A stretch of 64,000 nucleotides of DNA. Source: an uncultured delta proteobacterium (lineage in GTDB: Bacteria > Myxococcota_A > Polyangia > Haliangiales > Haliangiaceae). The notes under the pieces were generated by a model, which was not told where the DNA came from, ran no database searches, and saw nothing but the letters and a program-made list of their open reading frames with translations. Below, one piece after another: positions 28,450-29,125 of this stretch (positions within the stretch are counted from its first letter, which is position 1; every line of letters starts with the position of its first letter). Location: NCBI GenBank assembly GCA_963848295.1, contig CAWKDB010000002.1:1152001-1216000 (forward strand). Direction: 5' to 3'. A program made the position numbers and the translations under genes.

Positions 28450-28651
28450 GCGGACGCCCGATTCGCCGGGGCCGTCTCGCCCGTCGCGCCGCACTCGCGC
28501 CGGCGCCGTGACGAGCGCAGGCACAAATCTCCGCACGCGTCGGTCGATCCAACTCTGCGGCGGTCGTTCGCACGCGTCGGTGGTCTCGGCGCTCGGCGCG
28601 GTGCTGGCGCGAAGCGGCGCAGGGCGACGGCCCCGGCGAATCGGTGCGCCG
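28450..28651 (-). ncRNA. Putative structured 5' leader (long rod-like hairpin) of four-helix gene 1
   Basis: Perfect 19-bp basal stem CCGATTCGCCGGGGCCGTC/GACGGCCCCGGCGAATCGG (28458-28476 with 28626-28644) plus inner stems; homologous to 28929-29125. Confidence 0.7.
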
Positions 28652-28668
28652 CGAGCGCGAAAGGTGGC

Positions 28669-28896
28669 GGCATCGGCATCGGCATCGGCTGCGGCATCGG
28701 CTGCGGCTGCGGCATCGGCATCGGCTGCGGCATCGGCTGCGGCTGCGGCGACGGCTGCGGCTGCGGCGACGGCTGCGGCTGCGGCGTCGGCTGCGGCTGC
28801 GGCTGCGGCTGCGGCTGCGGCGACGGCGACGGCGGCGGCTGCGGCGACGGCGACGGCTGCGGCTGCGGCTGCGGCGACGGCGACGGCGACGGCGAC
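28669..28896. repeat. Degenerate hexamer tract 2 (38 x GGCNNC)
   Basis: Unbroken phase of GGCATC/GGCTGC/GGCGAC/GGCGTC/GGCGGC between the two divergent leaders. Confidence 0.95.
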
Positions 28897-28928
28897 GGCC
28901 TTGGAACACTCGACGCTCCTTCGCTCGC

Positions 28929-29125
28929 GCCGATGGGCGGAACGTCTCTCTCGCCCTGCGCCGCTTCGCGCTTGTCCCGCGCCGAGCGCCGAGTGCGCCG
29001 GCGTGTGAGAGCGACCGCCGCGGAGTTGATCGGCCGGCGAGTGCGGTGGTCAGCGCCCGCGCTCGTCACGGGACCCGCGCGAGTGCGGCGCGACGGGCGA
29101 GAGAGAGACGTTCCTACCCATCGGC
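28929..29125 (+). ncRNA. Putative structured 5' leader (long rod-like hairpin) of four-helix gene 2
   Basis: Basal stem GCCGATGGG..GGAACGTCTCTCTC / GAGAGAGACGTTCC..CCCATCGGC; the core aligns with the reverse complement of 28458-28644. Confidence 0.7.

Follow-up and report, generated by a model that had tools for sequence, protein, structure and literature searches.

The window, by which we mean the whole 64,000-nt stretch of DNA analysed here (C2:1152001-1216000), comes from an uncultured delta proteobacterium of the Haliangiaceae whose genome (7.78 Mb, 11 contigs, 85% complete) is referred to below as G000. The segment at 27836-29647, which has the sequence CTAGCG at both junctions, contains a cassette of about 1.5 kb that is bracketed by hexamer satellites and that carries two units, A and B, each consisting of a long hairpin, hereafter called a rod, and a gene. 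Gene A (28108-28428, minus strand) encodes a 106-aa and gene B (29147-29470, plus strand) a 107-aa four-helix-bundle protein. Both proteins match PF05635, described as '23S rRNA-intervening sequence protein' (Avd-like), with E values of 5.8e-14 and 1.5e-11, respectively, and both match the NCBIfam model TIGR02436, 'four helix bundle protein' (E 2.9e-13 for protein A). They are 68% identical to each other (67/99), and the closest solved structure by sequence is that of XCC0516 from Xanthomonas (2GSC; E 8e-4). Neither protein matched any of the PADLOC defence models, and no HEPN-type motif was seen in them upon inspection by eye. PF05635 proteins, also named S23p, IVS protein or Avd-like, are common in bacteria and, to our knowledge, have a known role only in the case of the DGR member Avd.

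The two units are separated by a central satellite of 232 bp (28668-28899) composed of the hexamers CGGCAT, CGGCTG and CGGCGA. The left satellite (27850-28053; Tandem Repeats Finder rows 27850-27982 and 27980-28053) is a (CGGNNN)n tract of mixed GGCTGC, GGCACC, GGCAAC and GGCGAC units followed by (CGGATT)12. A small hairpin downstream of gene A, CCGGCACCCTTTGCCGG (28070-28086, minus strand), is kept in the cassette copies and looks terminator-like by eye; the terminator scan did not call it. Behind gene B, the cassette ends in a 3' tail (29476-29640, plus strand) made up of a GCCGGC hairpin with a T-run and a conserved non-coding stretch of about 130 nt (...GGTGTAAGCGGGGTGTCAGC...GATGTCTTGAGCAC, 29500-29640). 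To the right, positions 29646-30653 of the minus strand encode a 335-aa protein without a Pfam match, whose C-terminal tail (...PTPTPT...KPKR*) is specified by the right-hand (GCTTCG)n tract (29651-29907). The cassette is thus placed precisely between the stop codons of two convergent genes.

Two related hairpins with unrelated basal stems

The earlier note had reported that the region 28450-29125, which besides the rods includes the central satellite, holds two rod-like leaders whose basal stems are swapped and still paired. Both hairpins are real, and all the motifs on which that description was based are present in the sequence. Rod A (28452-28650) is a hairpin of 199 nt with 79 predicted pairs, and rod B (28929-29125) one of 197 nt with 81 predicted pairs. 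Since the sense strand of rod A is the minus strand and that of rod B the plus strand, the two copies are inverted with respect to each other and lead divergent genes, a point that was absent from the earlier note. The term leader describes their position well, as each rod lies immediately 5' of its gene: they end 14-21 nt upstream of the two paralogous PF05635 genes. The folds are far more stable than those of shuffled sequences, with -140.6 kcal/mol for rod A (shuffles -108.4 +/- 5.2; z -6.2) and -143.6 kcal/mol for rod B (shuffles -111.2 +/- 5.1; z -6.4), and for both rods 0 of 200 shuffles were as good.

The inner parts of the rods could be aligned, as had been claimed, with a mean column identity of 84%. 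The inner stems TCGCCC/GGGCGA and GCGCCGC/GCGGCGC are found in both copies, as is the invariant CGCCGAGCGCC ... GCGCTCGTCACGG, and the direct repeat CCGACGCGTGCG occurs twice in rod A, the first copy of the earlier note (28532-28543 and 28569-28580). The outer stems have no common sequence: the basal arms of the two rods are unrelated, and each is paired. In rod A, CCGATTCGCCGGGGCCGTC (28626-28644) pairs on the minus strand with GACGGCCCCGGCGAATCGG (28458-28476). In rod B, the second copy, GGAACGTCTCTCTC (28939-28952) pairs on the plus strand with GAGAGAGACGTTCC (29101-29114), and the stem is extended outward by GCCGATGGG / CCCATCGGC to give the full hairpin of 28929-29125. The general plan of a rod is thus an invariant asymmetric core, a fully paired basal stem of free sequence, and a variable tip. 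The core, CGCC-GAGCGC ... GCGCTC-GTCA-CGG, shows no variation across 25 diverse rods.

The rods form a family outside Rfam

A covariance model, R1, was built on nine rods of this genome and comprises 204 positions and 55 pairs. Using Infernal's stricter filters, and with many of the genomes being incomplete, R1 matched 43 of 90 further genomes from the genus, where a single genome had as many as ten rods; these tallies count the unpublished genomes G010 and G057 as non-matching, and none of our conclusions depends on these two. In a class-wide draw searched with the same filters, again with many incomplete genomes, matches were obtained in seven of eight genomes of the genus, in none of eight from other genera of the family and in none of 134 from other families. 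A pattern scan of 185,579 species genomes returned at least 120 stretches. Among the 80 matches listed, nearly all are chance, and only L144 (two rods) and L142 span most or all of R1. Plasmid and phage collections contained no match to the rod or cassette. Among sequencing runs that share words with the sequence, there was no RNA run; those listed are DNA runs from soil and other metagenomes, and the best of them has 0.41 of the words. No Rfam 15 family reached its gathering threshold anywhere in the window, and the rods constitute an RNA or DNA motif family outside Rfam. At E <= 1, the interval 27000-31000 gave three sub-threshold microRNA matches, one at 30509-30630 and two on the left satellite; the latter (mir-607 and MIR4380, 27971-28053) were rejected as artefacts of the (CGGATT)n tract. 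A full-text literature search, made under the names of the protein family rather than with the motif itself, found no paper on such leaders.

R1 scored the A and B rods of this genome at 165-216 bits in the sense and at 33-47 bits in the antisense orientation (195.6 versus 39.3 bits for rod A, and 200.4 versus 35.9 bits for rod B), so the rod sequence is strand-specific. Its association with the gene is equally directional: a PF05635-type gene follows on the same strand in all 23 rods of this genome and in 32 of 46 rods of relatives, where 29 were found by tblastn and three more by reading the ORFs. For the remaining 14, no such gene was detected within 1 kb by an HMM of our own that found four of four control genes; these solo rods are situated in gene-poor stretches. 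Identity of the downstream proteins to protein A spans 31% to 76%, and the association persists at 31-40%, indicating that it is old. Rod pairs are divergent here and in L068, and convergent in L034, L065, L072 and L090.

Many of the relatives examined have tandem repeats 20-70 nt upstream of their rods, and the repeat units are of many different kinds. Examples from the L064-L092 loci are CTCCTCGCA, GCTGCTCTC, CCGCAA and GGGAAG, as well as a 19-mer in L069. Judged from these sequences, tandem repeats appear to accompany the rod across species while the sequence of the repeat itself stays free.

Pairing is conserved, partly by way of simple repeats

When 55 homologous rods were aligned to R1, pairing was found to be kept while the sequence changes: 91.9% of the cells are paired, as against 73.5% after shuffling, and double changes occur at 46 of the 55 pairs. 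The covariation score is 0.381, compared with 0.103 for shuffled alignments and 0.044-0.068 when partners were slid, and 0 of 500 shuffles reached any of the five measures taken, a test that overstates the significance because the alignment is fitted to the R1 structure and many of its rows are paralogues. MAFFT and RNAalifold, applied to 25 rods, recovered no more than 19 pairs, since the variable arms failed to line up; the model-guided alignment was used in their place.

The earlier note had taken the swapped and still paired basal stem as an argument for selection on structure. The conservation of pairing holds, but the swapped stem is not clean evidence of stepwise compensatory selection, as both basal arms are simple repeats, of the types (TC)n/(GA)n, (GTC)n/(GAC)n and (GGT)n/(ACC)n, in 18 of the 55 rods, where shuffles lead one to expect 1.0. 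In addition, these stem classes reappear from species to species, so that A and B are old paralogue classes. Thus, the swapped stem reflects old paralogue classes that were partly built by slippage. It may serve as a cautionary case: a stem that is swapped and yet paired may arise from simple repeats, without point-by-point compensation.

The cassette is multi-copy and apparently dispensable

The genome contains ten cassettes with both halves. The A halves are 91.4-95.1% identical to the A half of the window, one of them being truncated, and the B halves 93.5-96.6%, while the A and B halves are about 77% identical to each other. Beyond these, there are types C and D, which form a diverged pair, type E, which is a single unit, and one fragment. 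The flanks of the window copy are single-copy, and unrelated genes lie beside each of the cassettes; (CGGNNN)n satellites of variable length are present on both sides of all ten copies, and the central satellite varies from 141 to 438 bp. The 3' tail is present in six of the ten copies and lacking in four. Among the ten copies, nucleotide diversity (pi) is 0.13-0.16 at codon position 3 versus 0.004-0.016 at position 2 (0.156 and 0.004, respectively, for gene A), and 0.046-0.064 in the rod versus 0.23-0.40 in the 3' flank; therefore, both the protein and the rod are constrained.

Three cassette sites were compared with those of G104, the closest relative, in which the flanking sequences are about 90% identical. 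The site of the window copy is empty in G104, where the TAG of the left gene directly adjoins the (GCTTCG)n tract, which is shorter there. At the second site, about 170 nt of gene A survive in G104 as a relic, and the third has a decayed rod together with a gene A that has an internal deletion; at the site of a further copy (L028), the G104 contigs break. This pattern of presence and absence is typical of a cassette that is selfish or, at the least, dispensable, and the satellite-rod-gene unit apparently belongs to a multi-copy selfish cassette.

Two B-type rods, L025 and L024 (C10:1502154-1502357 and C2:860747-860950 of G000), have an A-like right half of the apical domain, a mosaic whose sequence suggests gene conversion between A and B leaders.

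The rods are predicted to mask the ribosome-binding site

In minimum free energy (MFE) folds that include the start of the gene, the helix resumes below the basal stem, past a small internal loop, and the 5' tract that takes part in it is complementary to the Shine-Dalgarno (SD) sequence. On the minus strand, the SD tract of gene A (CGAAAGG, 28436-28442) is predicted to pair with an anti-SD tract, CCTTTCG, at 28658-28664 (fold of 28414-28695), and seven of 11 SD-region bases pair with this distal 5' partner. On the plus strand, the SD tract of gene B (CGGAGGA, 29135-29141) is predicted to pair with TCCTTCG at 28917-28923 (fold of 28886-29161). Both rods of the window thus have the complementarity to the SD sequence or start codon that marks an SD-sequestering 5' leader, and they differ on both sides of the helix (TCCTTCG/CGGAGGA versus CCTTTCG/CGAAAGG).

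The same arrangement is predicted in many other rods: in 21 of 36 gene-linked rods, at least six of 11 SD-region bases pair with a sequence over 120 nt farther upstream, and in nine the AUG is fully paired. When the 5' flank was shuffled, SD occlusion was expected in 11.2 of 35, which is to be set against the 21 observed and which means that the control is already high. The anti-SD partner sequences vary between lineages and yet remain complementary; in some relatives the complementarity extends to the start codon and stops there, five helices ending in CAU:AUG. Occlusion is mostly found in rods with short spacers, and most rods with spacers of 41-93 nt are without it. Rods of the latter kind (L069, L072, L084, L090, L046 and L065) have the motif GAGCTTGGGG / GAGCTGGGGG about 35-40 nt before the start codon.

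It should be noted that pairing alone does not establish RNA, since the antisense strand folds as well: it does so equally well or better in 36 of the 55 rods, by 3.3 kcal/mol on average. There are 111 G-U pairs versus 70 A-C mismatches; two pairs dominate this difference, and without them there is no clear excess. Neither the comparison of G-U and A-C counts nor that of sense and antisense MFE favoured the sense strand. The pairs of helix 1 are nearly all Watson-Crick, which is compatible with a DNA palindrome too. A promoter and terminator scan, which is uninformative in GC-rich DNA, returned 0 sites, and a candidate sigma-54 promoter upstream of rod B was rejected by eye, as its GG is not conserved among copies.

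Discussion

With the predicted anti-SD:SD helix, an RNA-level role of the rods gains support. On balance, we lean towards the view that the rod, at the RNA level, is the folded 5' leader of the downstream four-helix-bundle gene and is predicted to occlude the ribosome site. The rod would be transcribed together with the gene and would act as a rigid clamp that joins the anti-SD to the SD tract, so that translation would be off by default. Release may take place through RNase III cutting of the long perfect basal duplex, by analogy with IVS stems, and the genome has one RNase III gene, which makes such processing feasible. Alternatively, release or control may be exerted by the encoded pentameric protein binding to the mismatched core, by analogy with Avd. 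The invariant mismatched core may thus be a binding site for either a host factor or the encoded pentamer; as it is unchanged in front of proteins that are only about 35% identical, a host factor would fit at least as well as the encoded protein. By this analogy-based reasoning, the rods would be SD-masking leaders that are probably processed by RNase III.

The rods may instead act as DNA, in the form of single-stranded hairpins or cruciforms used for copying, recombination or insertion of the cassette, the pairing being kept by hairpin-templated repair and slippage. Comparable DNA structures are rolling-circle single-strand origins, integron attC sites and the hairpin ends of IS200/IS605 elements. 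Because the basal stems are partly simple repeats, a DNA-level hairpin stays a live rival, and it would account for a cassette that is dispersed in ten copies with unique flanks and whose occupancy varies from one close species to another, as in G104 with its empty site, its relic of about 170 nt and its decayed copy. The nearly complete Watson-Crick pairing of the basal helix, with simple repeats on both arms in 18 of 55 rods, the lack of a folding advantage of the sense strand, and the position of rods at the outer ends of convergent gene pairs in several relatives are consistent with it, as are the tandem repeats beside rods in many species, which are expected near a replication-stalling hairpin. 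We nevertheless consider this reading rather unlikely. The cassette neither contains nor adjoins a transposase, integrase or Rep gene, the plasmid and phage collections gave nothing similar, and the rods of this genome lie inside the cassette rather than at its ends. Moreover, the terminal part of the rod is variable and its interior invariant, the opposite of what terminal inverted repeats look like, and a complementarity that runs into the SD and AUG and ends at the start codon has no evident purpose at the DNA level. It is very improbable that the rods are palindromic miniature transposons of the MITE, ERIC or REP type that landed in front of genes by chance. Although such an origin would fit a palindrome that spans the whole length and has multiple copies per genome, some of them solo, and although the genome contains a second PF05635 cassette family flanked by terminal inverted repeats, it is the interior rather than the ends of the rods that is conserved, and they share their flanks with the gene as a single unit. 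Nor are the rods independent of genes: the association and its orientation persist across paralogues of about 35% identity and 43 genomes, with 23 of 23 rods here and 32 of 46 in relatives being gene-linked.

An RNA may also act apart from the messenger, as a separate stable non-coding RNA that forms a ribonucleoprotein with the four-helix-bundle protein after the model of the DGR RNA and Avd; a reverse transcriptase acting in trans might then use the rod as template or primer. The invariance of the mismatched core, the occurrence of solo rods, the presence of three RVT_1 genes above the family cut-off in the genome and the binding of structured RNA by the Avd family agree with this possibility, which we regard as improbable. 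The RVT_1 matches lie at C11:619500, C11:721418 and C2:795818, with one below the cut-off at C10:2116505 and none in the window; no cassette is linked to a reverse transcriptase, and the repeats seen within the cassette are limited to the satellites and its two halves, with no template/variable pair among them. The gene-poor surroundings of the solo rods look like decay, and a rod that adjoins or contains the gene's ribosome site fits a leader better than a separate gene.

A broader proposal, which we put forward as an unlikely one, is that the satellite-rod-gene unit represents the rRNA IVS element in a free-living form, that is, a selfish cassette without a transposase in which an Avd-like pentamer would bind the core of its own rod RNA, and which would spread by recombination between hexamer satellite tracts. 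If true, this would provide the first function outside retroelements for the S23p/IVS protein family. The presence in one lineage of dozens of PF05635 genes, each with a conserved structured leader of about 200 nt, offers a concrete RNA partner to test. The rods also link three themes that have been discussed separately, namely the processing of IVS stems by RNase III, the binding of RNA by Avd, and selfish cassettes of small size.

Among known systems, IVSs carrying an S23p ORF, which sit in a helix of a 23S (or 16S) rRNA gene, come to mind because of the protein family. According to PMC4990558, such IVSs occur in the 23S rRNA of Leptospira, Coxiella and Brucella, their stems are RNase III substrates, and the IVS is regarded as a selfish element with a sporadic distribution, whose ORF in Coxiella is reported to be decaying. 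The cassette resembles an IVS in its PF05635 protein, in the long stable stem formed by complementary sequences, and in its selfish and sporadic character. It differs in lying outside rRNA, in having the ORF 3' of the hairpin rather than in its loop, in a helix that closes on the ribosome-binding site, and in genes that are under strong purifying selection as opposed to the decaying ORF described for Coxiella. We therefore rejected its identification as an IVS: a PF05635 ORF is present, but Rfam detected no rRNA in the window, the flanks are protein-coding, and the ORF starts 14-21 nt after the rod, outside the stem. No 23S rRNA gene is assembled in this genome (85% complete), and the 23S genes of three relatives, G011, G100 and G084 (2988-3022 nt), have no ORF-sized insert.

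G000 also carries a second family of PF05635 genes (MLSFQKLRVDQRS...), which are nearly identical, at C2:271083-271394, C10:2647165-2647461, C2:797188-797472, C10:3467581-3467865 and C10:3175866-3176054. At three of these loci, long inverted repeats that start with GCCGCTCAGATAA and continue as (GTTGAC/CTTGAC)n lie on both sides, placing the ORF inside the stem in a classical IVS-like layout. The copy at C10:2647165 shows the downstream arm only, that at C10:3175866 is truncated, and a reverse-transcriptase gene lies 0.8 kb away from one copy.

In DGRs, Avd forms a pentamer that uses flipped-out bases to bind an 11-bp stem-loop (bioRxiv 10.1101/2023.10.23.563531). The cassette shares with the DGR system a homologous pentameric four-helix-bundle protein and an adjacently encoded structured RNA with unpaired or flipped bases. 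It differs in having no reverse transcriptase and no template/variable repeats among the repeats seen in it, and the Avd element is described there as an 11-bp stem with a tetraloop downstream of avd, not as a rod of 200 nt. The identification of the cassette as a DGR was rejected, as no reverse transcriptase is adjacent.

Rolling-circle single-strand origins and attC sites are likewise imperfect palindromes of 60-200 nt with a conserved structure, a free sequence and a specific orientation; unlike these, the cassette has no Rep or integrase gene nearby, none of their signature motifs was noticed in it, and its complementarity reaches the start codon. Leaders that mask the ribosome site and are processed by RNase III are known from the early genes of phage T7, lambda N and E. 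coli adhE. There, too, a long duplex includes or abuts the SD sequence, and cleavage in it alters translation and stability; however, these are single loci that are not known to have a core conserved throughout a family, and in the rods cleavage is a predicted step. Taken together, we class the rods and their cassette as a variant both of the SD-masking leader and of the IVS-like cassette that combines a hairpin with an S23p gene.
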